The notes beneath the pieces are model-generated. The model was not told the DNA's origin. It saw nothing but the letters and a program-made list of their open reading frames with translations, and searched no databases. A stretch of 64,000 nt of DNA from an uncultured Pseudomonadota bacterium (lineage in GTDB: Bacteria > Oederibacteriota > Muellerivitia > Muellerivitales > Muellerivitaceae): assembly GCA_963836235.1 (NCBI GenBank), contig CAWIIP010000002.1:672001-736000 (forward strand), in the 5' to 3' direction. The position numbers and the translations under genes are program-made. Position 1 is the first letter of the stretch. Each line of letters begins with the position of its first letter. Shown here piece by piece: positions 25,587-47,398 of this stretch.

Positions 25587-25615
25587 AATATGCCAATCTT
25601 CCGGTTTGTTGTCAA
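25587..25615 (-). promoter_or_regulatory. Putative sigma70 promoter for tRNA-Met/tilS
   Basis: TTGACA-N17-CATATT with TG extension. Confidence 0.6.
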
Positions 25616-25631
25616 TTGTCTTAAAGGAAGG

Positions 25632-26066
25632 TTACTTGTTCTTTTCTTTGCGTTCGTAATAAGATTTTTTTAATTCTTGGGCGATAACCGGATTTTTCAT
25701 CAATATTTTATCAAAATCGTAGCGTTGAAGGATAAAGAGTTCGGTGACTTCCTCCGCCACGACCGTGGCATTACGGGGCTCGTTTGAAATAAGCGCCATT
25801 TCGCCAAAAAATTCATCAACGCCAAGAGTAGCCACTTGAGATTTTCGAAATCCCTTTTTCATCCAAATCGAAACTTTTCCGGAAGCGATCAAATAAAAAG
25901 CGTCTCCCGGATCACCTTGCTTAATAATTTCATAACCCTTTTGAACTCGTATCATCCGAAGATGACCGATTAATTCGTCCAGTTCATTTAATTTCAAGGA
26001 TTGGAAAAAATAGGTATTTTGTAAAACGTGTCGAAGACGGCTAAAAATAGATGCGGTATCAGTCAT
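25632..26066 (-). CDS. Stand-alone cyclic nucleotide-binding domain protein
   Basis: IIKQGDPGDAFYLIASG, FFGEMAL, PRNATV; no HTH. Confidence 0.9.
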   Translation of the reverse strand: MTDTASIFSRLRHVLQNTYFFQSLKLNELDELIGHLRMIRVQKGYEIIKQGDPGDAFYLIASGKVSIWMKKGFRKSQVATLGVDEFFGEMALISNEPRNATVVAEEVTELFILQRYDFDKILMKNPVIAQELKKSYYERKEKNK

Positions 26067-26217
26067 GGTCTTCTCCGTATTACAAAATCATTGATAATCA
26101 CGGAAGAAATTATATATCCGAAGAGGTTCCATTCAAAGGGGGAAAAGCTAAACAGATATTAGGGCCGAGCAAATACCAGTATTTTGCGAATCGTAACCAA
26201 AGAGCACGAGTTCGCTC

Positions 26218-27096
26218 TCAACCAAATACCAAACCTTTGTCGTTCAAATTTTTCAGAACGGCTTGAACGATTCGACTTTTGTTCAAAACATAAAAATGAA
26301 TGCCGGGAGCGCCGTTTCTTAAAAGTTCTTCGCATTGACGAGTAGCATATTCAATCCCGAATTGAATTACTTTTTCCTTATCGCCCTTGATCAATTCCAA
26401 ATATTTCACGATATCTTCGGGTAGTTTCGCGCCACAAAGATTACAGATTCTTTGGGTTTGCGCATAATCGGTTAAAAGCCAGATACCAGGTTGAATGGGG
26501 AGATTAATATCCATTTTCCTGAGACGCTCTACATATTTAAAGTAGTCCCGATTATCAAAATATAACTGAGTAATGATATATTGACCGCCAGCGTCGATTT
26601 TTCGTTTAAGATTTTCAATATCCGCTTCTAGGCTTTTCGCTTCTAAATGGCCCTCGGGGTAACCCGCAATCCCCAAACAAAAATCATAACCTTCAGATCT
26701 GATAAACTCGATGAGTTCATTGGCATAACGAAAACCATCAGGCGCGGGAACGAAGGAAGTCTCACCACGGGGAGGATCGCCCCGCAAAGCCAGTATATTT
26801 TCAATTCCGGCAGACTTTACCTGATCGAGTAAATCCTTAATTTCAAATCGCGAATGCCCGACGCAGGTGAAATGCATTAGAGGCAAAGCTCCAACTTCTT
26901 TCAACCTGACAGCAATTCCATAGGTCATATCCCGCGAAGACCCCCCCGCGCCATAAGTGATCGAAATATAATCCGGTTTTAATTCCTGTAATTCTTCGAC
27001 CGTTCGAAAAAGTCCATCGATATTTCCATCACGGGGAGCGGAAAGCTCGAAGGACAAAACTCTTTTTTTTTCGTCGAATAAATTTCGAATTTTCAT
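26218..27096 (-). CDS. metF: 5,10-methylenetetrahydrofolate reductase
   Basis: SFE, TYGAGGS, LALRGDPP, GYPEGH, ITQ, GIHFY; ATG 27096 overlaps the upstream stop. Confidence 0.95.
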   Translation of the reverse strand: MKIRNLFDEKKRVLSFELSAPRDGNIDGLFRTVEELQELKPDYISITYGAGGSSRDMTYGIAVRLKEVGALPLMHFTCVGHSRFEIKDLLDQVKSAGIENILALRGDPPRGETSFVPAPDGFRYANELIEFIRSEGYDFCLGIAGYPEGHLEAKSLEADIENLKRKIDAGGQYIITQLYFDNRDYFKYVERLRKMDINLPIQPGIWLLTDYAQTQRICNLCGAKLPEDIVKYLELIKGDKEKVIQFGIEYATRQCEELLRNGAPGIHFYVLNKSRIVQAVLKNLNDKGLVFG

Positions 27097-29429
27097 GGCA
27101 AAACTCTCATCTGAAATGATGAAGCTTTTATCAAACAGAATAAGACCACACCCAAATACAAAATACAAGAAAGAATGGAAACCCATTTACCAATCTCAAA
27201 TGCGGTTGGCCGATACTCCAGGATAAAATGATGCGCCCCTGCGCTAAGTGGAATGGCCCGTAAGAAGTAGTCCCCGGGAATGACGCGATAATCAGACTGG
27301 CCGCTTCCCGGAAGACCCACGGCCTTCCATCCGGAGCTATAATTGTCCGTGACCAATAATAAGGTCGGACCATTGGTTCGGACTCGCACTTCAATTTCAT
27401 CCGTAGAAAGATCTTTCCACTCCACCTTTCCTACCGCCCCCCCGTCCTGAACAGAAATAGGTTCCGGAGCAGTCTCTAAAAAAACTTTCCGGGTCGGATC
27501 AAAGGTAGGAATGAACATGGCATTCAATATTTTTTGCCCATCCGGAATTACTTCCCAATGATTCACAAGTTGCATACGTGGCAACGCCTTGAAGTTAAAC
27601 GGATAAATTCGAATAGGATTTTCATTCATTAATAACCGGTATTTGAGCCGCGTAATTCCCAATATGGGTGGAAATTTTTGAAAAATCGGCAAAATGGAAA
27701 ATAATTGATTTTCTGATAAACCTTGGCTTTTACAAACAAATCGACCATAACGTCCCAAAACCATCGGCTCATCTTCCCAAATATCGTCACCATCCGTAAC
27801 TAAAGAAGCGCTACCAGTTCCATATACTCGGTAATCCCCTGGATTTTTTGAATAAAAATCGCGAAGTACGCCGAACTGATATTGAAGCTTAGACAATTCA
27901 AACGTAGGTCGGTTGAGTCGAGCAAAGAAAAACAGTTCGATGATGGCCAAGGCTGCGATTGCGTAAATGCATTTCGGAATTAGTTTTTGAATTGTCAACA
28001 AAATTGCCAATAAAGTACAAGTTAATCCACCTACAAGCAGACTAAAAGCTGCGTGGAGGCCAGATTCTTCGGCATACTGGACTTTTACAGAAAAATTTAA
28101 TGAGTGAAGTGTATTCTTTAACCAGTGAACATTACAAAACCATTTTCCCCAATCACCACTTAAGCCCCCTTTAACCGAATTTAGGATTAAAAATTCCATT
28201 ACTAGAACAATAAATCCGAACACAATAACGATGAAGACTAGCCACCTTAATTTGCTTTTCGCCTTAATCAAATGATCTAAACCAATTCCAGCCAATAGCG
28301 CCAGGAACAAACTAACCAAAAAATCGAATTTACAGATACCGCGTAACCCTTTAAACCCCGGAAAAAAGTCATAAAAATACTTAAAAAGTGGGGTAAAAGC
28401 TCCTAAAGAAAAAATAAAGGCAATAACCGTTATCATCAAAATCCATCGTCTTTTTTGAGAATTGGACGAGAAGACCGCTAAAAGGACCAAGAAAAAAGCT
28501 GTTGTTCCAATGAATAAAGAAACTTCCCATAAAAACCAGCGGCCCCAATAATGCACCGCTACTAGGTTTCCAAAAAACTCAGGAAAAACAAGAGTCAACA
28601 AATTTTCAGGAGGAAAAGAAAAAGAACTCGCCGTATTGTATTCAAAAGAAATATTCCGAGCGCATTCCGAAATCGCTTCAAGTCCGGTCCACAATTGTGC
28701 TGCAGTTATTAAGGAAGCTCCGACATACAGGATGGAGAAACTTATTAAAATTTGAAGCTTGGCTTTTTTCCCTTTTAAATTTAAAAGAACATAAATGAGC
28801 GAAATGATCGCAGTAAAATACACATACTGGGGATGTCCCGCTAAGATTTGCATCGAAATTGTAAAAATACCAAGGAGAATCCAATTTATGGAATTTTTTT
28901 TTATTAACCCATCAATGGACAAAAATAGAAGTGGCGCCCACACCATCGTGCACAAATTTGGCAAATGGCCAGCATACAAGTGTAGGAAGTAAGCCCCACC
29001 AAACATAAAAACGGTGCCCGCCACAAAACTGGAAAGGAAATGAAGGCCCCGATAATTGGCCCATAAGTAGGTAAAGAATCCAGCTAAAAAAACATGAAGA
29101 ATAATTCCTAAATTAATGGCAAACGCCAAGGGAAAAGCAAGATAAAGCCAATTTGGCGGGTATAAAAGAGCCGACTCGAAATTACCCAAAAATGGGGTGC
29201 CACAAAGATAGTGAGGATTCCACAAAGCAAGATGGCCATTATGAAGTTGATCAAAAGCGAATTGGCGCCAAGCCACAAAATGGAGGAATAGATCGGCTTG
29301 CGAGCTTGATAATACTAAATGACTTCCGCTCCTTAGAAGATCACCAAAAAGGAGCAAATTTAAAAGGCAAAAACCGCTTGCTCCCAAAAGAAAGCTAGAA
29401 CGATAAAAGACTACTTTTGTTAAACCCAT
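27093..29429 (-). CDS. YfhO-like polytopic membrane protein (GT-C glycosyltransferase-like)
   Basis: LWNPHYLCGTPF, YPPN, AGHPQ, many TM segments, C-terminal DNYSSGW...LRAIPLSAGAH...EYRP. Confidence 0.8.
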   Translation of the reverse strand: MGLTKVVFYRSSFLLGASGFCLLNLLLFGDLLRSGSHLVLSSSQADLFLHFVAWRQFAFDQLHNGHLALWNPHYLCGTPFLGNFESALLYPPNWLYLAFPLAFAINLGIILHVFLAGFFTYLWANYRGLHFLSSFVAGTVFMFGGAYFLHLYAGHLPNLCTMVWAPLLFLSIDGLIKKNSINWILLGIFTISMQILAGHPQYVYFTAIISLIYVLLNLKGKKAKLQILISFSILYVGASLITAAQLWTGLEAISECARNISFEYNTASSFSFPPENLLTLVFPEFFGNLVAVHYWGRWFLWEVSLFIGTTAFFLVLLAVFSSNSQKRRWILMITVIAFIFSLGAFTPLFKYFYDFFPGFKGLRGICKFDFLVSLFLALLAGIGLDHLIKAKSKLRWLVFIVIVFGFIVLVMEFLILNSVKGGLSGDWGKWFCNVHWLKNTLHSLNFSVKVQYAEESGLHAAFSLLVGGLTCTLLAILLTIQKLIPKCIYAIAALAIIELFFFARLNRPTFELSKLQYQFGVLRDFYSKNPGDYRVYGTGSASLVTDGDDIWEDEPMVLGRYGRFVCKSQGLSENQLFSILPIFQKFPPILGITRLKYRLLMNENPIRIYPFNFKALPRMQLVNHWEVIPDGQKILNAMFIPTFDPTRKVFLETAPEPISVQDGGAVGKVEWKDLSTDEIEVRVRTNGPTLLLVTDNYSSGWKAVGLPGSGQSDYRVIPGDYFLRAIPLSAGAHHFILEYRPTAFEIGKWVSILSCILYLGVVLFCLIKASSFQMRVLP

Positions 29430-29569
29430 AAAGTCATGGAATCAAATGATAAGCAAGGCGTCAACTCATTTTTGTTAAAAGGAACTTTTTTCTGAACTCA
29501 TAACCAAATAAATTGTTTGGAATTGATTTTTTACAATAAGATTAAAGATAGTCCCGAGGGGGTTCTAAA

Positions 29570-30466
29570 TTGCTTCAAAAAGATTACATCATTTTGACCG
29601 GCCTGAAAGTACGTTGTATTATTGGCATATTTGATTGGGAACGGAAACAAAAACAAGATGTTCTGATCGATCTCAAATTTCCTTGTAATATCCACAAAGC
29701 AGCTTTGCAGGACCATATAACTCATACTTTTAATTACAAAAAAATTGCCAAAAGTATTGTTTCGTTTGTTGAAAAAAGCCAATACCATTTGATTGAAACA
29801 TTAGCGGACAAATTGGCAGATTCATTGTTAAAAGATTTCAAGCTTTCTGAGATTCATTTGTCTGTTTCAAAGCCAGGAGCTGTCCGAGGTTCTCAAAATG
29901 TCGGTGTTAAAATCTATCGTAAATGGTCCGATACTAAATCACCGAAACTGACATATTTAAGTTTAGGTTCAAATATCTATCCGAGGGAAAATCTTCACCT
30001 TGCGTTGAGCGAAATCAGTAAAAAATATTCCGTTCTTGGGCAGTCCCACGTGTATGAAACTTCGCCTGTCGGCTATATTCGGCAAAAACCTTTTTGGAAT
30101 TTAGTTGTGGCACTTGAGACTCGAGAGTCACCTGGCAAAATTCGAGATTGGGCTGAAATTCTAGAAAGAAGGGCGGGCCGGGTTCCAATTCATAATACTC
30201 TTGGGCCGCGATCCATGGATATTGATCTTATACTTTGGGGAAACTTTGTCAAAAAATATAACGAATTCACCTTGCCCCATCCCAACATTGAAACAAAAGC
30301 TTTTGTTCTTTTCCCTCTATTGGAAATCAATCCCAATTTAGTACATCCTCTTCTTAGAAAACCACTTATTGAACTGGCGTCAGAATTTAAAGATTCTTCC
30401 CAAAAAATTCGACAATTAGCTTCGAATACTTTTTTCGATTTTCTACCAAGAAAGCTCAATGAATAA
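29570..30466 (+). CDS. folB-folK: Fused dihydroneopterin aldolase / HPPK (FolB-FolK)
   Basis: IGIFDWER..Q, NY, LIETLA, KP; then YLSLGSN, YETSP, GPRSMDIDL, LPHP. Confidence 0.92.
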   Translation: MLQKDYIILTGLKVRCIIGIFDWERKQKQDVLIDLKFPCNIHKAALQDHITHTFNYKKIAKSIVSFVEKSQYHLIETLADKLADSLLKDFKLSEIHLSVSKPGAVRGSQNVGVKIYRKWSDTKSPKLTYLSLGSNIYPRENLHLALSEISKKYSVLGQSHVYETSPVGYIRQKPFWNLVVALETRESPGKIRDWAEILERRAGRVPIHNTLGPRSMDIDLILWGNFVKKYNEFTLPHPNIETKAFVLFPLLEINPNLVHPLLRKPLIELASEFKDSSQKIRQLASNTFFDFLPRKLNE

Positions 30467-31211
30467 ACCGTCCTCCATCTACTTTTATAATTTGCCCAGT
30501 AATAAAATTATTTTTAGCTAAAAACAAAACCGCACCCGCTATTTCCTCCGCTGTACCCTGTCGTCGTAGAGCAGATTTACGAATTAGCTTTTTTTTCTTT
30601 TTATTTCTATACCCTTCGGGAAAAGATATAGCTCCGGGCGAGACAGCGTTCACTCTTACTTTTGGAGCAAATTCCACTGCCAAATACTTCGTAAGAAATA
30701 TCAAGGCGGCTTTTGAAAGAGAATAGGCTGGATAATTCTTAAGAATTGGTAATTCGCCATAAATATCTGTGATATTAATAATATTTCCTTTGGATTTCTG
30801 AAGCCACGGAAATGCCGCTATTGCCAGTGCACAAGGAGAGAAAGTATTAACTTGAAAAATCTCTAACCATTTTTCCCAGTCTTTAACTGCCAATGGGCTT
30901 GATTGGAATAGTGAAGCGTTATTGATTAAGAGGTCTAATCTTCCAAATTTGAAAATAACTTGCCCGATAACCGACCTTAATTTAGAAGGTGTTCTCAAAT
31001 CAGCACTTAAGACAAGTGTTTCTATTCCAAAATAGTTCAATTTTTCTTGAAGCTTCAGAGTGTTTTTTTTTGATCTTCCAAAGTGAAGGGCAAGGCTTAT
31101 TCCATGTTTGGCCAACTTGAAACAAATGGCGGTGCCAAGAGGACTGGCGGCCCCTGTGACTAGCGCAACGGGTTTTGTGGTAGGAATCTTATCTTTTTTA
31201 TGTGGGATCAT
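30456..31211 (-). CDS. SDR oxidoreductase, FolM/pteridine reductase-like
   Basis: VTGAA, NNAS, IINITD, YSLSK, LAVEFAP.VRVNAVSPG, VDGGR. Confidence 0.8.
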   Translation of the reverse strand: MIPHKKDKIPTTKPVALVTGAASPLGTAICFKLAKHGISLALHFGRSKKNTLKLQEKLNYFGIETLVLSADLRTPSKLRSVIGQVIFKFGRLDLLINNASLFQSSPLAVKDWEKWLEIFQVNTFSPCALAIAAFPWLQKSKGNIINITDIYGELPILKNYPAYSLSKAALIFLTKYLAVEFAPKVRVNAVSPGAISFPEGYRNKKKKKLIRKSALRRQGTAEEIAGAVLFLAKNNFITGQIIKVDGGRFIH

Positions 31212-31247
31212 TAATTACATTCTAACAGGTTCACCAACCATCGTCGC

Positions 31248-32051
31248 TTAGGATTCGGAATCTTTTTGCTTTGTTAAAAAACGTATCGCGCTTGGAAGAA
31301 ATTTCCAATACCATTTGGTTAATGTAACTATTTTTGATCCCGAATATCTTTCCAAATATAATTTTTGGGCTGAGTCCCAGATAATCGATCCCGGGCCATT
31401 TTCTTTCAAAAGCTGAAGGAATTCTTGAACCAGTCCTGAAGGACGGATTTCTAAAAAGTCATTCAGCGCCTCTTCTTGTAACTCATCATGCGAAACCAAT
31501 AGATCCAAAATAATTAAAAGATTTCGGGCTGATTCATAAATTTTAAGCGAATTCAAAAATCGACCGGTGCCTAATTGTAAACCTTTATCTAGAATAAACC
31601 GACCCACCTGAGGTAGAAGTACTTCATAATGGACACCTAGATAAGAAACATCAACAAAATGCGGATTTTCTAGGAGAATCGAAAACCGTTTATCAGGAAA
31701 AGCTGCCAAACCATGGGTTGAAACTTTTTGGTTAACACGAACACGCGGACAGAAAAATTGAATAATTCCTAAATCCTCTCGAGAATAGCACGGGTACATA
31801 GCTTGACTTAAATTTGTTCTTTTGGTTAACCGATAAAAACCTTGTTTCAAAAGATGATCATGTAGTTTTTGTTTTGAACGTCCGCCAGTTTCTACCCCAA
31901 AAACAGCTTCTCCCGACCGATGGGCAGAGACCGGCTTTTCGATGAGAGAAAGATGATAAAGCTCCGCTGCTTTTTCTTCCAAAATAACGAGGGTTGGAAG
32001 AAAATCTTTTAATAATGGAAGCCACGGCGATATTGAAGCAGAAACACGCAA
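31248..32051 (-). CDS. Nucleotidyltransferase-fold protein (GSU2403/AbiEii-like), catalytic motifs apparently lost
   Basis: Resemblance by eye: GLAAFP...ILLENP, LPQVGRFILDKGL, ARNLLIILDLL; no GG.A or DxD motif. Confidence 0.5.
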   Translation of the reverse strand: MRVSASISPWLPLLKDFLPTLVILEEKAAELYHLSLIEKPVSAHRSGEAVFGVETGGRSKQKLHDHLLKQGFYRLTKRTNLSQAMYPCYSREDLGIIQFFCPRVRVNQKVSTHGLAAFPDKRFSILLENPHFVDVSYLGVHYEVLLPQVGRFILDKGLQLGTGRFLNSLKIYESARNLLIILDLLVSHDELQEEALNDFLEIRPSGLVQEFLQLLKENGPGSIIWDSAQKLYLERYSGSKIVTLTKWYWKFLPSAIRFLTKQKDSES

Positions 32052-32106
32052 GCGAACCTAACCTTGCATCAATTTGCAAAGGTTTGTCAAAACCCTCTTT
32101 ATCAAA

Positions 32107-32310
32107 TCAAAAAATCTTGCTTTTGACAAACCTCAATGTCTTTTTTCGGAAATATCCCCGAATCTCAACTATTTTGACCGCTTGACCAGTCCAAAATTCA
32201 ATCTATTTTTCTGGCCAATTCTTCTGTTGAAATTTGGTGCTCGCAAAACCTTCAACAATCGTAACGGTTTTACCCCGATGACTCTTTTTCGAAGATATCA
32301 GTTTTATAAA
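32107..32310 (-). pseudogene. yciH: Decayed translation initiation factor SUI1/YciH gene
   Basis: KKSHRGKTVTIVEGF, frameshifted EELARKI, in-frame TAG, then TGQAVKIVEIRGYFRKK...KIF*. Confidence 0.75.
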
Positions 32311-32322
32311 AAAACCTAAAAT

Positions 32323-32351
32323 AAAAAAAGCCGCCCCATGGAGCGACTTTT
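32323..32351 (-). terminator. Rho-independent terminator after the tRNA pair
   Basis: AAGTCGCTC-CATG-GGGCGGCTT followed by a T run. Confidence 0.7.
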
Positions 32352-32358
32352 ATAACAG

Positions 32359-32435
<77 letters not shown>

Positions 32436-32485
32436 TCTTTTTGGCGCACAAAAGCGCCTCGCTTTTACATGACAATACTGATCAA

Positions 32486-32573
32486 TGGTGCCGAGACCCG
32501 GAATCGAACCGGGACGAGCTTTAGGCCCGAGGGATTTTAAGTCCCTTGCGTCTGCCAGTTCCGCCATCTCGGC
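32486..32573 (-). tRNA. tRNA-Leu (TAA)
   Basis: GCCGAGATGGCGGAA...CTTAAAA, long variable arm, 88 nt, CCA. Confidence 0.96.
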
Positions 32574-32672
32574 AAAAAACTACCCGATCACTAGTTCCTA
32601 ACCGAAATAAAATTAAAATTCGATTCTTTTAAAAAAACCGACGCCGATTTTAAGGTGCGATAAAGGACGGTT

Positions 32673-32701
32673 AGAATAACGGCCAGTAGAAGTGAAGTCA
32701 A
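32673..32701 (-). promoter_or_regulatory. Putative sigma70 promoter for tRNA-Leu/fMet
   Basis: TTGACT-N17-TATTCT. Confidence 0.6.
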
Positions 32702-32718
32702 CAACGATTCCGAGCTAA

Positions 32719-33003
32719 TTATTTACCATCATTTTTTGAAAACTTGTAAACCAATTCTCCCGGCTTCACAAGATTCAATTCTTCCCGGGCTTGTTTTTCA
32801 AAAATCGAAGCACTTTTAGAAAAAAATTGATACTCCAATTGGTAGTGCCTAATTTGGTTGTTCAATATAAAAACTTGTTCAGACAAACTCTTTTTTTCTT
32901 GCTGGAGTTTATATAAATTCCACAAACCACGATTTCCGCTGAAGAGAAGATATCCAGTCGCAAAAAAGATAAGCCCATTTGCCCATTTTTTTGTTGCCGT
33001 CAT
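32719..33003 (-). CDS. ftsB: Septum formation initiator FtsB/DivIC
   Basis: TM, coiled coil, EKQAREELNLVKPGE. Confidence 0.88.
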   Translation of the reverse strand: MTATKKWANGLIFFATGYLLFSGNRGLWNLYKLQQEKKSLSEQVFILNNQIRHYQLEYQFFSKSASIFEKQAREELNLVKPGELVYKFSKNDGK

Positions 33004-33836: not shown

Positions 33837-33840
33837 GAGA

Positions 33841-34200
33841 TCAGGTCAACTCTTTTTCAAACTTTGGAATAGCCTTTTTTAGTTCCAAGCGGCCTCTTCC
33901 TAGATTTCCATCAAGATTAATGGCAAGCGTCACAAAATAACTTTGACCAACCATCATCATGATCATCGTAGCTTTATCGGTAGTTATCAAAATTTCAGCC
34001 GTATTTCCTAGTCCAAAATTAGAGGAAGCTCGCATTGCATTTTTGATAATACTGGAATATTCGGCACCAACTGCGTTGATATCGAAGGTTGAATTATGAG
34101 AAATCTGATCAATAACGATTCCATCCATTCCAACCAATCCTGCTCCTAGCGCCCCTTCAACATTTGAAAGGGTTTCTTCTAATATTTTTTTGAAATCCAT
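33841..34200 (-). CDS. Roadblock/LC7 protein, MglC-like
   Basis: VEGALG..LVGMDGI, EY, YF..LA...DGNLGRGR..L....PK...EL; matches the recalled Myxococcus MglC pattern and position near pil genes. Confidence 0.8.
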   Translation of the reverse strand: MDFKKILEETLSNVEGALGAGLVGMDGIVIDQISHNSTFDINAVGAEYSSIIKNAMRASSNFGLGNTAEILITTDKATMIMMMVGQSYFVTLAINLDGNLGRGRLELKKAIPKFEKELT

Positions 34201-34272
34201 TAGGTAATCCTGCCTGAAATTCTATTAAAGTCCATTAAGGCAGATCAATATAGTTTTTTTTAAATTGGAAAA

Positions 34273-35565: not shown

Positions 35566-35569
35566 AAGC

Positions 35570-37817: not shown

Positions 37818-37824
37818 TTGGGGA

Positions 37825-38988: not shown

Positions 38989-39071
38989 TGTTGAATACTC
39001 CAATTAGGTTGGATTGTTTATTGATACATTTTTAAAAAAGGCCTTTAAAAAGTACCTTTTAAATTTAATTT

Positions 39072-41450
39072 TTAATCTTCTAACAAGGTGGGCGTAACAA
39101 AAATAACAAGTTCTTCATGTTGATCACTCTTGGAATGCACTTGAAAAAGGCTTCCAATGATAGGCAGACTTGATAAAAGGGGCAAACCATCCACTTCCTC
39201 TTGCACAACCTCTCTGACAAGACCACCAATTACGATTGTTTCTCCATTCTTCGTCGTAATGGTTGTTGTCGCCGTTTGAACATTTGTAGGAGGTGGTGCA
39301 CCCGGCGCAGCGGGTCCGGATGGAGTTGTAATAGAAGCTGAAATCACCGTAGTTATTTTTCCATCATCAGTTATGCGTGGAAGCACTTTAAGATCAATCG
39401 GAAGCGCCACTTGAAGATATGTGGTTGTTGTTTGAAAACCCACATTAGGAACAGCGATCTCAGTTGTCGATGGAACAATAACATTTTCAGTTTCATTTAT
39501 TTCCGCTGCAATTCCACTCTGAGTAGAAACTCGGGGTCGTGAAATTACCTTTCCTTTTTTATGAGTGATTAAAGCTTGAATACTAGCCGAAATGTCCATG
39601 CCACTTCTGACCGTCCCAAAACTTAATACTCCAGGAGCCCCATTTGTTCCTGTCGGCGGAAGATCAAGACCGGCAGAAAATGTAGGGTCTCCAGTCCCCC
39701 TATTAGCAGACCAAATAACACCCATAGCCGAATCATTCTCATCATCAATTTCAACGATATTGGATTCAATCAAAACCTGTTCTGGCTTAATATCTAACTC
39801 ATTAATTAATTCTAAGAGAACACCCATATTAGTTGCGGTTTCCCAAATAATTAATTGCTGCTTATCTGCTTTCACTTGAATCTTTCCAACAGGCGTCAGG
39901 TAAGGTGTTAATATCGGGCTCATTTGTGCTGCCGTGGCATAGTTCAACTTTACCACCCTGATAATCCGATCACCACTTGAGCCAACATCCAGCTTTAAAT
40001 CCTTTATTGCCATTTTATATTCTTCGATATCCGAAGTCGTCCCAGTCAAGACAATAACATTTCGAGTGGTATCAAAAAAAGTGCTTGAAGCGTTGGATGC
40101 CGGAAGAATAGACCTCACTAAAGTATCAAATTGGTTTGGTAACATACCATTTGAGGGAGTTATGATTTCAGTGATGTGCGGCAAAATTAATTTTGTGCTT
40201 TTGAGGGTGGCTTGTGGACCAACTCGAAGAGTATTCCCTTGTAAATCATAATCATAATTACCCGAAACCAATAAATCAGAAAGTGCAGTTTTGAAGGGAA
40301 TGTCTTTAAATTTTTCTGAAACAGTACCTGTTAAAGGCCCTCCAACAAAATTCACCTCAAAACCAGCTTCCCCCGCAAGAGTTTTAATCACCGCATTAAG
40401 GTCAGCACTTTCAAGGTCAAGTGAAATAAGTTGGTTGAGATTTCCCTTTTTTGTTTCCTGTTTTTGAATAACTGGCGGAGCCGACAACGTCAGTACCACT
40501 TGATTCAAATCACGATCTATTTGGTTAACGGTCCCAGGAAGAAGAGTCAGCAAAACCTCTGAAATTGGAGAAAAAACAGGGCCAATTTGTCGACACTCCA
40601 GGGAAAGTAACCCACTTTTTTGTATTCCAATTTCATCCATTCTTAACTTTTTCACCTTGTCTTCGATTTCCAATTTAGTGTTTTGAAACCGAATCACTAA
40701 TTTTTCAGGTTGAGATAATTTTCTAATTGTGTATTTTGAGGGGCCATCAGAGGTCAAAACCACTTTAATACAATTTCCAAGCGGCTTTAACGAAACATCA
40801 ACAAGCCTGGAAAATAGCCCCTTTTCATCGGTGGCATTAGTCACCGGTAAAACCGTTCCAGAAGCATTTTGATTACTTTGGCTTGATTCCGGATTTAACA
40901 ATAAGGTAAAACCAAGGTCTGATTTTTCTAAAACAAAATTTTTGATGCCTTTGCCATCAAAAACAAGCCATGCAGTTCCTTCATGGATTGACGAGCGAAC
41001 GTCCGTCACAAAAAAAATAGCCCCCCTTATTTTGGGCGGAATATTTAACTTTGTTTTTAAAAACTTTAACAAGATTTTCCCGCTCGATATTTTTTGAGCA
41101 AGCGGTTTTGGAAGGTCATCTCCTTCAATTGAAACCTTAGCCCCCTGCCCCTCTTTCGAAAAGTTCACTCCATTAATTACGCTCGAACCAGCTTTTCTTG
41201 TTTTCTCAGAAGTTTTCGTTTCAACTATCCCTGACCCATTAATCGAGCTGATCGCCGAAGTTATTCCATTTTCACTTGTTGCGTTTTTAGAGTTCGATAA
41301 ATTCTTTTCGGAAGAAATACCGTTTGTGGTTGTTGCCGCACCGGCGCTCAAATCAATATCGATGTCGTCAGCCTGTGAAATACAATTGCTTAATAACAAT
41401 ATTCCGAATCCCAAAAAGCATCTGTTCAAGTGCGAACAAAATCGTCGCAT
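39072..41450 (-). CDS. pilQ: Type IV pilus secretin with AMIN-like N-terminal domains
   Basis: Signal peptide, QVLIESNIVE, GETIVIGGL, PLLSSLPIIGSLF, LVIFVTP; follows pilMNOP. Confidence 0.9.
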   Translation of the reverse strand: MRRFCSHLNRCFLGFGILLLSNCISQADDIDIDLSAGAATTTNGISSEKNLSNSKNATSENGITSAISSINGSGIVETKTSEKTRKAGSSVINGVNFSKEGQGAKVSIEGDDLPKPLAQKISSGKILLKFLKTKLNIPPKIRGAIFFVTDVRSSIHEGTAWLVFDGKGIKNFVLEKSDLGFTLLLNPESSQSNQNASGTVLPVTNATDEKGLFSRLVDVSLKPLGNCIKVVLTSDGPSKYTIRKLSQPEKLVIRFQNTKLEIEDKVKKLRMDEIGIQKSGLLSLECRQIGPVFSPISEVLLTLLPGTVNQIDRDLNQVVLTLSAPPVIQKQETKKGNLNQLISLDLESADLNAVIKTLAGEAGFEVNFVGGPLTGTVSEKFKDIPFKTALSDLLVSGNYDYDLQGNTLRVGPQATLKSTKLILPHITEIITPSNGMLPNQFDTLVRSILPASNASSTFFDTTRNVIVLTGTTSDIEEYKMAIKDLKLDVGSSGDRIIRVVKLNYATAAQMSPILTPYLTPVGKIQVKADKQQLIIWETATNMGVLLELINELDIKPEQVLIESNIVEIDDENDSAMGVIWSANRGTGDPTFSAGLDLPPTGTNGAPGVLSFGTVRSGMDISASIQALITHKKGKVISRPRVSTQSGIAAEINETENVIVPSTTEIAVPNVGFQTTTTYLQVALPIDLKVLPRITDDGKITTVISASITTPSGPAAPGAPPPTNVQTATTTITTKNGETIVIGGLVREVVQEEVDGLPLLSSLPIIGSLFQVHSKSDQHEELVIFVTPTLLED

Positions 41451-41466
41451 CTTAAAATCTCCTTTT

Positions 41467-41889
41467 TTATTTTCGCGGATAAACAATTTTTTGGTCACCT
41501 TGAATCAACGTTAATTCGATATCAGAAACGTCCCCTACCACGCCGTCGATTTCCACACCAGCATCGCTATACAATTTTCTATACTTTAAAGTGTACCGAA
41601 CGGCCTGATTTCCGCGCCAAGTGAATAAGCCCATCGGATTACCTTCCATGACTATAACACCATGATACTCTAAATCAGAAATCGAAATTTGCGGAGACCG
41701 ATTTACGTTGTCTAAAGGCCTAAACGGATCACGCCCATGATAAACCGGAATATAAGGTGGTTGAATAGAAAAATTGACAAAAACAGGTTCTGGCACGTCC
41801 TGTTGTTGAGCAAGATTAACAGAGGGAATAAAAATAAAAAATATAAAAAAAACATATTCAATATAAACTTTATTGCATTTTATTTTCAT
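41467..41889 (-). CDS. pilP: PilP-like pilus assembly protein
   Basis: RDPF motif; position between pilO and pilQ. Confidence 0.65.
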   Translation of the reverse strand: MKIKCNKVYIEYVFFIFFIFIPSVNLAQQQDVPEPVFVNFSIQPPYIPVYHGRDPFRPLDNVNRSPQISISDLEYHGVIVMEGNPMGLFTWRGNQAVRYTLKYRKLYSDAGVEIDGVVGDVSDIELTLIQGDQKIVYPRK

Positions 41890-42440
41890 TATTTAGCTTG
41901 AACTCCACTAACAATAATTTGAGTCGATAAAGATAAAGTTGGATCGTCTGAAGTTGTTGGCGTATACGGAGTTACTTTTAACCCGTGGGCCGTCATCAAT
42001 AAATTCGAAGTGCTAATTTGATAAAGAAAATTTATAAGCCCCTTAAAATCAGAATGAAATTGTATATTAATTGGTATTTCAGTATATGAATCTTTAGAGG
42101 ATGGAGGATTAATGGTAAAACTTGTCAGCATAACATTGGACCGACTTTGCAAAAAACTAATAGCTTCAATTAATTTTGTTCTTTCGATCGATTTTGGAAT
42201 TCTATTCTGAATCCATTCGAGTTCCCGCTGAATTGAATCCTCTCTTTTTTTAAATTCCACATATTTAGCCACGATCATTTTCGCTTCTTCTAAGTCTTTT
42301 TTTTCCCCATCCAGCTTGGTTTGAAGGACCGATATTTTATTATTAATGGGTTTTAACAAAAATTGATAATAAAGAAAAGCAAGGCCAAAAAAAGCGAATA
42401 TCCCCAAAATAATGTATTGCTGGAGCGGTGTTATTTTCAT
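41889..42440 (-). CDS. pilO: Type IV pilus assembly protein PilO
   Basis: TM, coiled coil, IP, YTEIPINI, F..LINFL. Confidence 0.85.
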   Translation of the reverse strand: MKITPLQQYIILGIFAFFGLAFLYYQFLLKPINNKISVLQTKLDGEKKDLEEAKMIVAKYVEFKKREDSIQRELEWIQNRIPKSIERTKLIEAISFLQSRSNVMLTSFTINPPSSKDSYTEIPINIQFHSDFKGLINFLYQISTSNLLMTAHGLKVTPYTPTTSDDPTLSLSTQIIVSGVQAK

Positions 42441-43000
42441 GCGCCTTGATCCGCCACTTTGAAATTAATCTGAAATTGATGGATCTTATTTTTTCCTACT
42501 GTCGCCATTGAACTTTTCGGGTCCACCGTCACTTCTTTAAGCAAACCACTTGGTCTCTGTAAATTTGAAACGTAGTTTTGAATTTTTTCTTCCGCAAAAG
42601 AATATCCTTGAACAGAAAATTCATTCGCATCTTTTCCCGATCCCTGAATGATATTAGTTAACCAGATTCCTTCGGGCAAATTAAGAGCCATTTGATCGAG
42701 CGCAACAAGAATTTCTCTTTGTGTTTCGGAGATACTTTTGATAGTTTTCTTAAAGGCATCCACACTCGCCTGTTTATTCTCCAAATCCTTAACTTCGTTT
42801 ATTTTGTCTTGATAACCCTCTGATTCTTTTTCAACTTCCTCTATTTTTTTGTTTAAATTGCCAGCAACACTCAATCTTTGCGCATATATGTAAGCCATTA
42901 TCAAAATGGCAACCGCAAATACAGTCGCCACAGAAAAAATAATTAAAATTTCTTTTCGCTTTTTTCTCTCTTTTACAGGAACCAAATTAATGGTGATCAT
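42437..43000 (-). CDS. pilN: Type IV pilus assembly protein PilN
   Basis: INLVP motif, TM, LPEGIWL. Confidence 0.9.
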   Translation of the reverse strand: MITINLVPVKERKKRKEILIIFSVATVFAVAILIMAYIYAQRLSVAGNLNKKIEEVEKESEGYQDKINEVKDLENKQASVDAFKKTIKSISETQREILVALDQMALNLPEGIWLTNIIQGSGKDANEFSVQGYSFAEEKIQNYVSNLQRPSGLLKEVTVDPKSSMATVGKNKIHQFQINFKVADQGA

Positions 43001-43003
43001 TCT

Positions 43004-44107
43004 TTAAGATTCCACTTGGCGTAAAGCCAATCCCAAACAAACTCCCATGTGATATTCTTTTTCAGTTAGTTGTTCTAAATCAATACCCTTTTGAGACTCA
43101 ACATTTCGAAAAGTTGAAAAGTATTCAACAGGAATGCCCAATTTATTAGCCAAAAATCGATTGACATTTTTCAGCCTCGCACTTCCTCCCAAAAGAATCA
43201 CTCTTTCAACCGTTTTTTTACGCGCCTGAGTCTCATAGTAATCAAATGATCGGCGAATCTCCCCCAAAAGTTTGTTCAGTACCGGGGTTATAACATCGGA
43301 CATCCTTAAAACCCGGTCATCTTTTTGAGAAACAGAAGATAGATTAAAATCATCCTCTTCCATGGAAATAGCCCCATGGGATTTTTTCAATTCTTCTGCT
43401 TCAGAAAACTTCAGATTAAACTCTTTTTGAATTTCTTTCGTAAAATCATTCCCGGCCACAGGGATATCTCTGGTAAATCTGGTATTGTTACCTTCGAGAA
43501 TATTTATAGTCGTTAAAGAAGCTCCCATGTTAAGCAAGGCTACAGTTTCTTCACTTGGTTCCAAACGATTAATTTCAAAAGCATTTTGCAATGCAAAAGC
43601 GTCTATGTCTATTACTGCCGGGGTCAGACCAGCCGACTTAAGCATTAGGATATGTTGATCTACCACGTCAACTTTCGCCGCCACTAACAAGACGTCCAAT
43701 TTTCGTTGTCCATCTTCTTGTGTTTCACCCAAAATTTGAAAATCAAGCACAACTTGATCGATGTTTAGTGGAATATATTGCTCCGCCTCTTTGGAAATTG
43801 CACTCCGAAGTTCTTCGACCGTCATAAAAGGAAGTTTTACATAACGAATAATAACCGAATCACCAGAAAGTGACGTTACTACTCTTTTATTTTTTATTCC
43901 GCTTTCCTTATACACACGCTTTATAGTTTCAATGATTACAGAACGTTGGACCTCTGAGTTTTTAAGTTCCAATGACTCTTTGTTTGGCATCTCCGACATT
44001 CCAATAGCTACCAACTGCCATTGTTTTCCGGAAAATTTAAGCTGAACAATTTTAACGCTGGATGTTCCTACATCTAAACCCACAATTGTTTTTGAAAAAA
44101 GACTCAT
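43004..44107 (-). CDS. pilM: Type IV pilus assembly protein PilM
   Basis: GLDVGTSSVK, EAEQYIP, VLLVAAK, GGSA, GLALR. Confidence 0.94.
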   Translation of the reverse strand: MSLFSKTIVGLDVGTSSVKIVQLKFSGKQWQLVAIGMSEMPNKESLELKNSEVQRSVIIETIKRVYKESGIKNKRVVTSLSGDSVIIRYVKLPFMTVEELRSAISKEAEQYIPLNIDQVVLDFQILGETQEDGQRKLDVLLVAAKVDVVDQHILMLKSAGLTPAVIDIDAFALQNAFEINRLEPSEETVALLNMGASLTTINILEGNNTRFTRDIPVAGNDFTKEIQKEFNLKFSEAEELKKSHGAISMEEDDFNLSSVSQKDDRVLRMSDVITPVLNKLLGEIRRSFDYYETQARKKTVERVILLGGSARLKNVNRFLANKLGIPVEYFSTFRNVESQKGIDLEQLTEKEYHMGVCLGLALRQVES

Positions 44108-44451
44108 GAAATCATTCTCACTGAGTTAATTTTGGATAAAAGTAAACGATCGAATTTTCTTTGGTCAAAAGGATCTAAAATTGGCGTTAATGATTTGATT
44201 ATCAAAGTTTCATCAAGGATATTTAAGAATAGAAATCCCGCAATCGAAATACTTGCAGTCTCGAAGAAAAAAAATTTGAGTGTTTTTAAATGACTTAATG
44301 GTTTTCTTGCCAAGAAGAAGCGAAAAAAAATTGGAATTCTATCTGTCCAACATAACAAAAACACATTCAAAAAATCATAAAGACAAAAAGCCATTGCAAT
44401 AGGAAGGAACAAAATTATCAGAGCGTAGATAAAATCACCCCAAAATTTTAT

Positions 44452-44494
44452 AAAAAAAATAAACAATGGGTGTAATAGCCACCCATTGTTTATT
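44452..44494 (-). terminator. Rho-independent terminator after pilA
   Basis: Perfect 15-bp stem AATAAACAATGGGTG/CACCCATTGTTTATT plus T run. Confidence 0.8.
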
Positions 44495-44511
44495 AAGCTT
44501 TTAAATTTTAC

Positions 44512-44967
44512 TTATTCAAACCCATAGAATGAATAAGGAATGCTCTTGGAATCCTGCACAGTGCTGTTCACATACACACTTCCAAAATTACTGTCATACA
44601 ACCACCCAGTATTACTGTCTATTGGAACCCCACTCATAACCGTCATACTGACTAAAGCTCCAGCCGGGCTGGAAGCTCCAGCAACGAAGGCTCCTGTTAC
44701 CTTAACCGGAGAGATATTGTCCAAATAGCGACTGAACGCATACCCGCTAAACGACTGTAAAGTCGTCGGCCAAATCCCTTGTTGGTCCCCATAATAAATA
44801 GAAGCTGCTGATTTCAAGCTTCCCAAGTTACCTTTGGTCGCCCCTTCTCTCGATTTTTCCAACATTTGGGCAAATCGGGGAATAGCAATGGCAGCCAAAA
44901 TACCGATAATCGCGACAACGATCATCAGTTCAATCAATGTAAAACCTTTTGCTTTCAAACGAATCAT
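44512..44967 (-). CDS. pilA: Major type IV pilin
   Basis: KG|FTLIELMIVVAIIGILAAIAIP class III signal; own promoter, GGGAGG RBS and terminator. Confidence 0.9.
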   Translation of the reverse strand: MIRLKAKGFTLIELMIVVAIIGILAAIAIPRFAQMLEKSREGATKGNLGSLKSAASIYYGDQQGIWPTTLQSFSGYAFSRYLDNISPVKVTGAFVAGASSPAGALVSMTVMSGVPIDSNTGWLYDSNFGSVYVNSTVQDSKSIPYSFYGFE

Positions 44968-45031
44968 AAAAACCTCCCTTTGAGTTGAGCTCAGTCTTAA
45001 ACTGCAAGACCCTTTGACTTAGCTCTTAGTC

Positions 45032-45060
45032 ATTTTATCGTTTTAAAAAGACCCTGTCAA
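45032..45060 (-). promoter_or_regulatory. sigma70 promoter for pilA
   Basis: TTGACA-N17-TAAAAT. Confidence 0.75.
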
Positions 45061-45079
45061 CTTATCCAAACTCAAAACC

Positions 45080-46297
45080 TCAACCAACAGCATTGCCAAT
45101 TTCAAACATTGGCATAAACATAGCCACAACAATAAAACCAATCGTTACACCTAAAAAAACAATCAAAATAGGCTCAATAATTGATGTCAAACCCTCAACA
45201 GCAGCATCAACTTCATCCTCGTAAAAATCGGCTATTTTGCTCAACATTGTGTCTAAAGCTCCGGTTTCTTCTCCAACATTGATCATTTGGGTTACCATTG
45301 GGGGAAAAACTTTACTTTCTTTCAACGGTTGCGTTAAGGTCTTACCTTCTCTGACAGAATCACGAGCATTTAATACGGCTTTTTCCAAAACAAGATTACC
45401 AGAGGTTTTAGCAACTGTTTCTAACGCATCCATGATAGGCACACCCGACTTGATTAGAGTTCCCAAGGTTCGGGCAAACTTTGCCACAGCAGCTTTTTGA
45501 ACCAAAACTCCAAAAACCGGAAGACTCAAAATCATTTTGTCCCAATTATAAGCTCCTACCTTAGTTTTGCGATACAAGGTTAAAGCAATCCAAGCCGCAA
45601 ATAAGAAGACAACAATAAGGAGCGATTTCTTACTCGCCAAAAAATCGCTGACATCAATAAGGAACTGGGTTGGAGCAGGTAACTTCGCTCCGAAAGACGC
45701 AAAAACATCACGAAAAGTAGGAACTACTTTTACCATGAGAAAAATAACAACTAAACAAGCCACCGACATAACAACTACAGGATACATCATTGCCGATTTC
45801 ACTTTTCTCGACACGCCTTCTGCTTTTTCTAAATACTCCGAAAGTCGCTCAAAAATCACATCTAAAATACCACCCTGTTCGCCAGCCTTGACCATATTGA
45901 CATAAAGTGTCGTAAAAACTTTAGGATATTTGGCCATCGCATCTGAAAGTGGTACACCATTGGAGATGTCGTCTCGGACTTTCGTCATAACTGCTCGAAA
46001 GTCTGGATTTTCCGCTTGCTCCGCCACGATCGTCAAGCCTTGGAGAATCGGCAACCCCGCGTTCACCATCGTAGAGAACTGGCGGCTAAAAATCACAACG
46101 TCTTTCGTCGTTACCTTCCCTCCTTTTTTATTCAGTGCGGCCCAAATTGAACCTAACCCACCCGCCTGGGAAGTCGAAACAAGCTCCAATCTCTTTTGTC
46201 GAAGTGCAGACGCTACACCAGCTTCGTTTTCAGCAATAATAGTTCCTTCTATAACTTTGCCCATATTATTTCGGGCCTTATATTTAAAGTTTGGCAT
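45080..46297 (-). CDS. pilC: Type IV pilus platform protein
   Basis: FSRQFSTMVNAGLP, AGEQGG, AMMYP, VGEETG, IEP, MFMPMF. Confidence 0.95.
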   Translation of the reverse strand: MPNFKYKARNNMGKVIEGTIIAENEAGVASALRQKRLELVSTSQAGGLGSIWAALNKKGGKVTTKDVVIFSRQFSTMVNAGLPILQGLTIVAEQAENPDFRAVMTKVRDDISNGVPLSDAMAKYPKVFTTLYVNMVKAGEQGGILDVIFERLSEYLEKAEGVSRKVKSAMMYPVVVMSVACLVVIFLMVKVVPTFRDVFASFGAKLPAPTQFLIDVSDFLASKKSLLIVVFLFAAWIALTLYRKTKVGAYNWDKMILSLPVFGVLVQKAAVAKFARTLGTLIKSGVPIMDALETVAKTSGNLVLEKAVLNARDSVREGKTLTQPLKESKVFPPMVTQMINVGEETGALDTMLSKIADFYEDEVDAAVEGLTSIIEPILIVFLGVTIGFIVVAMFMPMFEIGNAVG

Positions 46298-46333
46298 TTT
46301 TAAGCCTTTCCAAGTCAAGGAACCCGAATGAAA

Positions 46334-47398
46334 TTAAATCACGCCTTTTACCATCCGTTGCAATTCTTTCGGATCCAATGTCCGGGAGAAAATTTCGTTA
46401 TAACTTACAAGTTGTTTTTGATAAAGCTCAAACAAAGATTGATTCATGGTCTGCATTCCATACTCAGTTCCCGTTTGCATGGACGAATAAATTTGGTGAA
46501 TTTTTTCCTCGCGAATGAGATTTCGAATTGCCGCAGTCGGGATGAGCACTTCCAATGCAAGGCACCGGCCGGATCCATAGGCCTTCGGTAATAGTTGCTG
46601 GGAGAGCACAGCTTGAAGGACAAAGGATATCTGTGCCCGAATCTGTTGTTGCTGGCCCGCGGGAAAAACATCAATGATACGGTTTATGGTTTGGATCGCA
46701 TCGACCGTATGCAATGTGGCGAAAACCAAGTGACCCGTTTCAGCGATAGTCAAAGCGGCATTCACGGTTTCCAAATCACGCATTTCACCAATGAGGATGA
46801 CATCCGGATCCTGACGCAAAGCATATTTTAGAGCAGATGTAAAAGTATGTGTATCCGTCCCAACCTCTCTTTGATTAACAATGCAGGATTTGTGAGTGTG
46901 CACATACTCAATGGGATCTTCTATAGTGATAATATGGTGTTGTTGATTTGTATTAATCCAATCCAGCATAGCCGCTAGGGTCGTTGATTTGCCTGACCCC
47001 GTTGGCCCCGTAACCAAAACTAATCCTTTCGGTAATTTCACGATGTCTAGCGCAATAGGAGGAAGTTTCAAGTCTTCGAATGTGCGAATGGATGTTGGAA
47101 TATTCCGTAAGGCCGCCGCTACCGCACCCCGTTGTTGATAAACATTCATACGAACACGGCCTACACCTTCAACCCCAAAAGAAACGTCAAGCTCGTTATC
47201 TTTCTCAAACTTCTCTTTTTGCTCATCCGTTAAAATGCTGTAAATAAGCTGCTGGGTTGTTTCTGGCCTTAGTTTTTCATATTCGGTTGCCGTCATAACG
47301 CCGTCAATCCGAAGCATTGGAGGGGCTCCAGCGGTGATATGAAGATCAGAAGCTCCTCTTTCAAACATAAGCCTTAAAAGCGTATCAATATTGACCAT
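46334..47398 (-). CDS. pilT: Pilus retraction ATPase
   Basis: GPTGSGKSTT, EDPIE, LRQDPD, AIRNLIRE, GMQT. Confidence 0.97.
   Translation of the reverse strand: MVNIDTLLRLMFERGASDLHITAGAPPMLRIDGVMTATEYEKLRPETTQQLIYSILTDEQKEKFEKDNELDVSFGVEGVGRVRMNVYQQRGAVAAALRNIPTSIRTFEDLKLPPIALDIVKLPKGLVLVTGPTGSGKSTTLAAMLDWINTNQQHHIITIEDPIEYVHTHKSCIVNQREVGTDTHTFTSALKYALRQDPDVILIGEMRDLETVNAALTIAETGHLVFATLHTVDAIQTINRIIDVFPAGQQQQIRAQISFVLQAVLSQQLLPKAYGSGRCLALEVLIPTAAIRNLIREEKIHQIYSSMQTGTEYGMQTMNQSLFELYQKQLVSYNEIFSRTLDPKELQRMVKGVI

Follow-up and report, generated by a model that had tools for sequence, protein, structure and literature searches.

An AT-rich compositional trough in native bacterial core genes, tentatively read as a recombination desert

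What lowers the GC content of a run of core genes within a single chromosome? Why bacterial genomes exceed the GC content that mutation predicts, be it through biased conversion, selection or repair, is an open question, and the core-gene contrasts previously known within genomes are small (2% GC at the Escherichia coli terminus). The 64,000-nucleotide stretch analysed here (the window; contig CAWIIP010000002.1, positions 672,001 to 736,000, of an uncultured bacterium) contains an AT-rich trough in which native core genes pass from a GC content at third codon positions (GC3) of 0.6 to a floor of about 0.3 within 11 kb. This trough is a real, unusual compositional domain in core genes, and it is probably conserved across the clade of its host. 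We give a little less than an even chance to our preferred explanation, a recombination desert, narrow and long-lived, within the core chromosome of an FCPU426-related clade.

GC content averages 36.8% over 33-44 kb and 38.2% over 25.6-47 kb, against 50.5% in the flanks. The original prediction, made by eye from the letters, had put it at about 30% around 33-44 kb, which overstates the depth; its two spot counts (34 of 60 at 4381-4440, 10 of 60 at 36001-36060) are exact on recount. In 1-kb segments GC starts at 50-59%, drops to 30-41% and climbs back to about 50%, with the minimum (30.5%) at 36.5-37.5 kb. Synonymous sites show the signal most strongly: at fourfold degenerate positions GC drops from 0.62-0.72 left of 24 kb to 0.35 at 29.5-44.5 kb and recovers to 0.66 at 51-61 kb. 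Per-gene GC3 runs from 0.47-0.76 left of 24.3 kb through 0.24-0.34 at 29.5-44.5 kb to 0.55-0.72 for core genes beyond 51 kb, where two lone AT-rich genes and an IS30 insertion sequence (IS) are exceptions, and neighbouring genes resemble one another (lag-1 autocorrelation 0.68, matched in 0 of 100,000 permutations). Proteins and spacers follow suit: F, Y, M, I, N and K make up 0.24-0.42 of residues inside the trough and mostly 0.19-0.29 outside, bearing out a predicted enrichment in I, K, F and N, and the aroK-aroB spacer has 31% GC versus 41-49% in flank spacers without tRNAs.

The predicted gradual profile without sharp edges also holds, in that smooth models outperform a box. By the Bayesian information criterion (BIC), a four-parameter Gaussian fitted to the whole window (centre 36.3 kb, sigma 10.8 kb) scores 24158 and three segments score 24291; seven free steps, at 24154, tie with the Gaussian. 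Over 9.4-61.4 kb a trapezoid (19073) is preferred to a Gaussian (19088), a sharp peak (19125) and a box (19159). The trapezoid is centred at 36.55 kb, with a half-floor of 6.05 kb, a floor at 30.5-42.6 kb and ramps of 10.8 kb each that end at about 19.7 and 53.4 kb; the trough is thus present where it had been proposed, at 25600..47000, and wider than proposed. A gene bootstrap places the centre at 35.1-37.2 kb (95% interval), over aroB-aroK. All of these fits exclude IS30, a hydrolase and a 343-residue orphan, and the later ones (bootstrap and trapezoid) also exclude a pilD remnant. GC3 also slopes within genes (-2.3 +/- 1.0 with gene fixed effects), a modest effect for which neither shoulder is significant alone. 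On the floor, GC3 is about 0.23-0.37 per 150-codon bin, and the coding-strand fourfold composition is A.26, C.14, G.21 and T.38. The shoulders climb 1.7 logit per 20 kb with rho of about 0.9; among 42 comparison loci with crude gene calls, namely those of at least 16 kb among 80 loci drawn from at least 599 matched stretches, the maximum is 1.32 with rho 0.54, and neither shoulder's steepness is equalled. At both window ends (1-9000 and 62500-64000) GC3 is 0.7 or higher, compared with 0.5-0.6 at 9-24 kb, and a broader compositional wave may therefore lie beneath the trough.

The trough and its principal parts are as follows, with gene identities taken from NCBIfam and Pfam matches.

19700..30500, no strand: left ramp, GC3 about 0.6 falling to 0.31; cdaA, folP, folE, ftsH, tilS, a cNMP protein, metF, a YfhO-like gene and a folB-folK fusion
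25397..25473, minus strand: tRNA with CAT anticodon, adjoining tilS in the left ramp
30500..42600, no strand: flat floor; a folM-like SDR (short-chain dehydrogenase/reductase), an ftsB-like gene, roadblock, TPR-roadblock, aroB, aroK, aroC, pilQ, pilP and pilO
32359..32573, minus strand: tRNA-Met(CAT) and tRNA-Leu(TAA), within the floor
35570..36676, minus strand: aroB (3-dehydroquinate synthase), lowest GC3 (0.24), frame intact, clusters with the AroB of the clade
35969..35984, no strand: parS-like site within aroB, three mismatches to the 16-bp consensus, one half perfect
36677..37268, minus strand: aroK-aroB spacer, at the fitted centre
37269..39003, minus strand: aroK and aroC, GC3 0.27 and 0.33
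39072..44107, minus strand: pilQ-P-O-N-M, type IV pilus assembly, GC3 0.28-0.33
42600..53400, no strand: right ramp, GC3 0.32 rising to 0.63, also seen in relative L002 and not in relative L003; pilN, pilM, pilA, pilC, pilT, pilB, aroE, rsmE, dnaJ and ferredoxin
44104..44466, minus strand: probable decayed pilD (prepilin peptidase), at the position of the intact L003 pilD
44512..49204, minus strand: pilA, pilC, pilT and pilB, GC3 0.44, 0.37, 0.42 and 0.46

Did these genes arrive from elsewhere? Three of the 80 loci lie within the clade at the DNA level (L001, L002 and L003). Their gene order matches that of the window over a stretch that starts at thiC or pilT and ends at pilA, aroB or the TPR gene, as expected of housekeeping genes in conserved order; none of the three loci extends to the left ramp. 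AroB clusters with L001 and L003 (support 99). In the PilC tree the window groups with L001-L003 and the sister is a candidate division FCPU426 genome (support 91), and from this one tree we infer that the host belongs to an FCPU426-related clade. The trees of AlaS, from the flank, and AroC, from the floor, have three shallow groups in common, with one genome discordant and deep branches unresolved; their pairwise distances correlate at Spearman 0.08, and concordance between inside and outside appears partial. The trough does not differ from its surroundings in di- and tetranucleotide odds, with no sign of a foreign oligonucleotide signature. No integrase was found among the window proteins with NCBIfam, Pfam and PHROG profiles, no long exact repeats bound the trough, and no att duplication lies near the floor tRNAs. 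The segment 34.1-42 kb has no phage match, and the plasmid records listed (10 of 458) match the tRNA pair only. Nor did we find genes foreign to or missing from the relatives, a comparison that at the DNA level covers the floor and right ramp. The minus strand carries 61 of the 63 called genes and cumulative GC skew keeps its direction through the trough, again as predicted. Because order is kept in relatives, the trees are clade-internal, the dinucleotide signature is unchanged and there is no integrase, att repeat or skew switch, the trough genes are, on this comparative evidence, native and vertically inherited. The claim that this is not a transferred island therefore stands, and of the pattern named as its refutation, stepwise GC3 with discordant trees, the seven-step model does tie with the Gaussian and one genome is discordant, but the trees are clade-internal. 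In the same PilC comparison, four loci labelled Ignavibacteria, Marinifilum, Bifidobacteriaceae or Clostridia (L023, L038, L056 and L074) encode a PilC 47-53% identical to that of the window; L023 and L074 fall near Elusimicrobiota, and some of the four are perhaps misbinned.

The relatives also speak to whether composition follows position. In the more distant L003, with the same gene order, the trough is absent: GC3 is 0.70-0.90 across the same genes with a faint slope (-0.44 +/- 0.15), and pilT, pilB and pilC have GC3 of 0.88-0.90, though AT-rich in the window. In L002, GC3 declines from 0.86 in thiC to 0.58 in pilC, a slope of -1.5 +/- 0.32 where the window has -2.0 over the same genes; taken gene by gene against L003, the slope is -2.5 +/- 1.1 (eight genes, with aroE and pilA as exceptions). 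Synonymous sites have meanwhile turned over almost completely. Fourfold identity between window and L002 is 33-35% in pilB, pilT and pilC, where about 25% is expected by chance; the PilA, PilC, PilT and PilB proteins are 88-95% identical to those of L002 with fourfold sites near saturation, and against L001 fourfold sites are at or near chance identity. Because L002 repeats the right gradient despite near-saturated synonymous sites, comparison among relatives shows the AT bias to be position-dependent and still acting, not a donor relic, and so the right gradient outlasted, or re-formed through, synonymous turnover. In L001, GC3 is low (0.27-0.38) from pilM to the TPR gene. We considered L001 as a second, independent trough and dropped the idea, since low GC3 is uniform over all 11 genes that can be compared with L003, and its AlaS is shifted towards AT.

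Amino-acid composition suggests, indirectly, that the trough is clade-wide. All 113 AroC proteins of the main clade are more AT-type than all seven of the sister clade (median log ratio of G, A, R and P to F, Y, M, I, N and K residues, ln GARP/FYMINK, 0.02 versus 0.63), and for AlaS the gap is smaller (0.01 versus 0.37; 50 and 11 proteins). Divergence is uneven as well. Against the nearest relative, protein differences amount to 2.0% for AlaS in the flank, 5.6% for PilC on the ramp and 14.2% for AroC on the floor, these proteins having been assigned to common genomes indirectly through paired protein records; the AroC/AlaS distance ratio is about 7.5 in this closest pair and 1.0-2.7 in the seven other pairs computed. 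Fourfold distance to L002, 0.64-1.0 for thiC, fdx and dnaJ, reaches 1.5-2.0 from rsmE to pilA, a noisy increase of about 1.5-3-fold in which the flank estimates rest on 40-148 sites. Relative-rate tests against L003 at conserved residues are flat (AroB 18:17, PilC 14:12, PilM 14:13), and we accordingly abandoned the idea of faster protein evolution throughout the trough. Of the signs of divergence to be looked for in a recombination-cold region, fourfold distance and the closest pair are thus raised, and the relative-rate tests show no acceleration.

Sequence decay lies within the trough, as had been predicted: two genes intact in L003 are decayed or gone at the same positions in the window and L001. 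One is pilD, whose probable remnant has weak collinear similarity only (E about 0.1). The other is a TPR/zinc-ribbon-like membrane gene of 238 residues between aroK and aroB in L003; that slot is non-coding in the window and L001, the equivalence being one of position, with no significant remnant by tblastn.

We propose the following explanation for this pattern. Work elsewhere has established that a force linked to homologous recombination keeps bacterial GC3 higher than the AT-biased equilibrium of mutation, and the same would apply here; the force would be GC-biased gene conversion or more efficient selection. In a core of about 12 kb, incoming alleles would rarely be fixed, the force would lapse and composition would sink to a floor (fourfold GC about 0.35). 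Imports near the core would have to avoid it, so that the import rate would recover over roughly one tract length and leave ramps of about 11 kb. Weaker selection would let dispensable genes decay, and close relatives would stay more diverged inside than outside. Recombination may be blocked by a protein domain bound to the DNA, or else hybrid alleles of co-adapted genes (pilM-Q and neighbours) may be selected against. Retchless and Lawrence (2007) reportedly found that some chromosome regions diverge earlier than others during speciation, and Daubin and Perriere (2003) are said to have described a structuring of GC3. There is precedent for the parts of this scheme. The terminus domain of E. 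coli combines a higher AT content with doubled divergence and little gene conversion (PMC2617782), 11 of 14 groups show raised GC3 in genes that recombine (PMC4450053), and in Staphylococcus aureus GC-poor regions are associated with reduced homoplasy (PMC4036114).

Several observations fit a recombination desert. Native core genes here have lowered GC3 and intergenic GC, as expected of a recombination-cold region, and a flat floor with linear ramps outfits both peak and box. The two lone AT-rich genes outside the trough match its floor in fourfold composition (A.23, C.15, G.21, T.41), the pilN-aroB genes of L001 come close to it, and this likeness of all three fits a common equilibrium. An AroC/AlaS ratio that is high in the closest pair only fits flank homogenisation limited to close relatives. 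If the GC-favouring force lapses, one expects a floor, no novel mutational signature, and an excess of divergence chiefly between close relatives; extra mutation predicts a peak unless it saturates, plus lasting acceleration. In a simple model, the lapse predicts a 1.1-1.9-fold rise in synonymous rate, and extra mutagenesis of about fourfold predicts 2.1-fold. A substitution spectrum had been expected to be informative, and no context-specific mutation signature was found (|z| at most 2.6 across 136 tetranucleotide classes; odds for CG 1.00 versus 0.98). Given a floor like the lone AT-rich genes, no context signature, the closest-pair pattern and flat conserved residues, the evidence moderately favours a lapsed GC-favouring force over extra G:C to A:T mutation.

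Other observations weigh against this explanation. A barrier at the pilus genes is poorly placed, as pilA is conserved (79-88% to L001 and L002) and the centre lies on aro genes. Fourfold ln(G/C) shifts from -0.23 to +0.2 and +0.6, for which a strand-symmetric force is insufficient alone, so that a weakened preference for C-ending codons has to be invoked as well. Synonymous distance increases by as much as the upper end of the prediction or more, which also fits extra mutagenesis (2.1-fold). Over the whole window, Gaussian and trapezoid perform about equally, and the flat floor therefore hinges on the choice of flanks. In the literature, PMC13548323 argues against a purely mechanistic link between recombination and GC.

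The strongest competing explanation, which we consider possible although doubtful, is that G:C to A:T mutation is raised about fourfold around a fixed site, where a protein coat (a nucleoid filament or a clamp of the ParB kind) or recurrent single-stranded DNA would block repair or expose cytosines. The profile is symmetric around 36.5 kb and its width is near that reported for ParB spreading, which is about 10 kb from one parS in Bacillus subtilis and about 2 kb in Caulobacter (PMC5815017). Coding-strand C is depleted more than G, the modelled 2.1-fold rate rise is near the observed increase in fourfold distance, bound nucleoid proteins can impair repair (PMC3527292) and breaks make mutation zones of 2-60 kb (PMC3607216). 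The sole parS-like site in the 64 kb falls within the 95% interval of the centre, 370 bases from the fitted centre, and arises in 1.1% of 3000 synonymous aroB recodings. This site was, however, found post hoc with one of four motif families tried; its three mismatches are all in one half, a match occurs somewhere in the window in 25 of 100 shuffles, and weak parS sites show little enrichment in vivo (PMC5815017). It is missing from L001, whose aroB has other codons there, and from L003. No parS with two or fewer mismatches exists in the window or the 80 loci, the other parS and NBS variants and palindromes searched in the window gave no convincing candidate, and the window contains no parA or parB. 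Between the aroK-aroB spacers of L001 and the window, no common motif exceeds chance (score 31, null mean 28), and promoter and terminator counts over 31.5-45.5 kb are at or below those of shuffles. Neither the central nucleation site of the original prediction nor its mutational or repair bias spreading with a protein domain is shown, the profile being flat-bottomed; its position dependence, like its rejection of a transferred island, is supported. Among the smooth shapes a peak fits worst, the left-right asymmetry between strands that break resection would produce does not reach significance (p 0.26 by gene permutation, 22 genes), conserved residues show no acceleration, known nucleoid-protein effects have been called minor (PMC3527292), and no context-specific footprints of deamination or methylation were found. 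Two further candidates were discarded: transversion-only damage, as twofold sites shift almost as much as fourfold sites, and a codon-level left-right skew asymmetry (z 3.9), which was lost under gene-level permutation.

The recombination desert fits at least as well as a mutation bias caused by a protein domain, and the two are compatible, since the domain could be what blocks recombination. The specific combination, in which a sliding or spreading DNA-binding protein (possibly ParB on the parS-like site) nucleates a heritable architecture domain of about 30 kb at aroB-aroK and thereby excludes recombination or repair clade-wide, strikes us as rather unlikely.

That the trough marks a replication terminus whose skew is masked by gene strand bias is improbable. 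Terminus regions elsewhere show the same AT-rich, diverged syndrome (PMC2617782), and G exceeds C more on the right of the floor (+0.57) than on the left (+0.21), as a terminus predicts. That inner asymmetry is not significant, though, one strand holds 61 of the 63 genes, the flanks are equal in fourfold skew (-0.23 and -0.24), and L003 keeps the gene order and has no trough. A dif site lies near the skew switch in other genomes (PMC3025954); here no dif-like site has fewer than two mismatches and neither of the two-mismatch sites is inside the trough. Sites with up to three mismatches number 19 (12 expected), none convincing, with motifs taken from other phyla that a divergent dif could escape, and KOPS-like motifs, also from other phyla, are at chance (13 against 13.2 expected) with no switch. 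The trough does not resemble a replication origin either, with DnaA boxes scattered at 6 against 6.4 expected and no skew switch.

Still less probable is old or repeated homologous replacement by the alleles of an AT-rich relative, with edges eroded by later recombination. One of 14 paired genomes (contig 143382) switches group between the AlaS and the AroC and PilC trees, the deep branches and the AlaS-AroC correlation are as poor as described above, L001 may be AT-rich genome-wide given its AT-shifted AlaS, and the window AroC is unexpectedly distant from its nearest relative. As for inside and outside trees, then, the shallow groups agree and this genome does not. Fourfold saturation implies, however, that a donor's composition would have been overwritten; the window PilC groups with the GC-richer L002 and not L001, the window AroC falls outside the L001 group, the AT-type AroC extends to all 113 main-clade proteins and none of the sister clade's seven, and the native oligonucleotide signature argues against foreign alleles.

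Ordinary background (common dips, weakly expressed or constrained genes, an IS-associated niche or an assembly chimera) is the least credible explanation, for although left-flank GC3 spreads over 0.47-0.76, two lone outside genes are equally AT-rich and AT enrichment up to about 100 kb around IS elements has been reported (PMC13548323), with IS30 here at 52.9-53.9 kb, the highly conserved pilT, pilB and pilC are AT-rich here and yet stand at GC3 0.88-0.90 in L003, none of the 42 comparison loci has so steep a gradient, IS30 sits at the outer edge beside GC-rich genes, and a chimera is disfavoured by the same right-ramp order in L002 and L003 and by the apparent co-location of AlaS and AroC in 13 other records.

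The window holds further features of note. The fused folB-folK (29570-30466, plus strand) is one of only two plus-strand genes and converges on the pteridine-reductase-like SDR. At 33841-35565, adjoining the pilus cluster, a TPR protein with a roadblock-like tail (by eye) is followed by a stand-alone roadblock protein, a pair reminiscent of MglB-type polarity modules. Two floor genes (31248-32051 and 33000-33836; 267 and 278 residues) have no Pfam, NCBIfam or PHROG match. An AT-rich palindrome with 12-base arms lies near the aroB start (36603-36627), and a terminator-like inverted repeat with 30-base arms lies 3' of pilA (44443-44509). The GC3 of pilA itself (44512-44967) is above that of its neighbours (0.44 in the window, 0.52 in L001, 0.70 in L002), which suggests that codon selection persists on highly expressed genes within the ramp. 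Of the two lone AT-rich genes, the alpha/beta hydrolase (53814-54545, GC3 0.36) is syntenic in L002 yet 58% identical, flanked by neighbours at 90%; an intact-looking IS30 transposase (52874-53854) is inserted at its 3' end, and the L002 hydrolase has no IS. The other, a 343-residue gene at 61441-62472 (GC3 0.29), has no Pfam, NCBIfam or PHROG match. The usual gene order is recA-recX-alaS; at 17746-18590 recX precedes alaS with no recA upstream, and a 106-residue protein there has a weak pseudopilin (T2SSG) match.

The contrast lies within one cell, with the same tRNAs and repair genes, and one relative repeats the gradient while another has none. It is therefore a natural experiment in which population spectra of single-nucleotide polymorphisms can separate mutation bias from fixation bias. 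A further caution concerns island finders based on composition, which can mistake core genes inherited vertically for islands. Were the architecture domain true, it would parallel in a bacterium the suppression of recombination at centromeres, and its trace on essential genes would be an isochore-like scar.

Our literature search, which covered few subscription papers, found no report of such a trough, in FCPU426 or elsewhere, and the available parts of PMC7023495, PMC3527292, PMC3607216, PMC3025954, PMC13548323, PMC6429543 and PMC12361140 describe no such feature. The closest known system is the E. coli Ter macrodomain (Touchon 2009, PMC2617782), which like the trough combines core genes, position-dependent AT enrichment and raised divergence, and for which a similar cause has been proposed, the loss of biased conversion or of selection efficacy. 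Ter spans about 1 Mb at the replication terminus with 2% lower GC (PMC2617782), whereas the trough spans about 30 kb, has 13 points lower GC and at least 30 points lower GC3, and lacks a skew switch or dif; its width is roughly a thirtieth of that of Ter, and its drop in GC roughly six times as large. In GC-biased gene conversion (Lassalle 2015, PMC4450053), GC3 tracks recombination, the effect is largest at synonymous sites and it reaches intergenic DNA; there it is reported gene by gene, and the available part of that paper describes no discrete, clade-conserved cold domain of such depth. ParB-parS domains (PMC5815017, PMC7383237) resemble the trough in their symmetric, kilobase-scale footprint around a site, and a parS-like sequence lies at the trough centre. 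That site, in contrast, is imperfect and not conserved, parA and parB are absent from the window, and no compositional footprint of ParB was found in the literature searched, again with few subscription papers. The B compartment of Sulfolobus is reported to carry a higher mutation load. Bound by coalescin, it is an architecture domain proposed to shape local evolution, as here, but it is archaeal, far larger and enriched in non-essential genes (PMC12361140). Genomic islands and IS-linked AT niches (PMC13548323) likewise show AT enrichment over tens of kilobases at all codon positions, but lie in variable accessory regions, whereas the trough lies in syntenic core genes with its sole IS at the outer edge. 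Break-centred hotspots (Shee 2012, PMC3607216) and wave-like mutation rates (Kivisaar review, PMC7023495) are regional as well, over tens of kilobases or more; the hotspots are peaked and stress-induced and the waves extend over hundreds of kilobases, whereas the trough is flat-bottomed and probably fixed across a clade.

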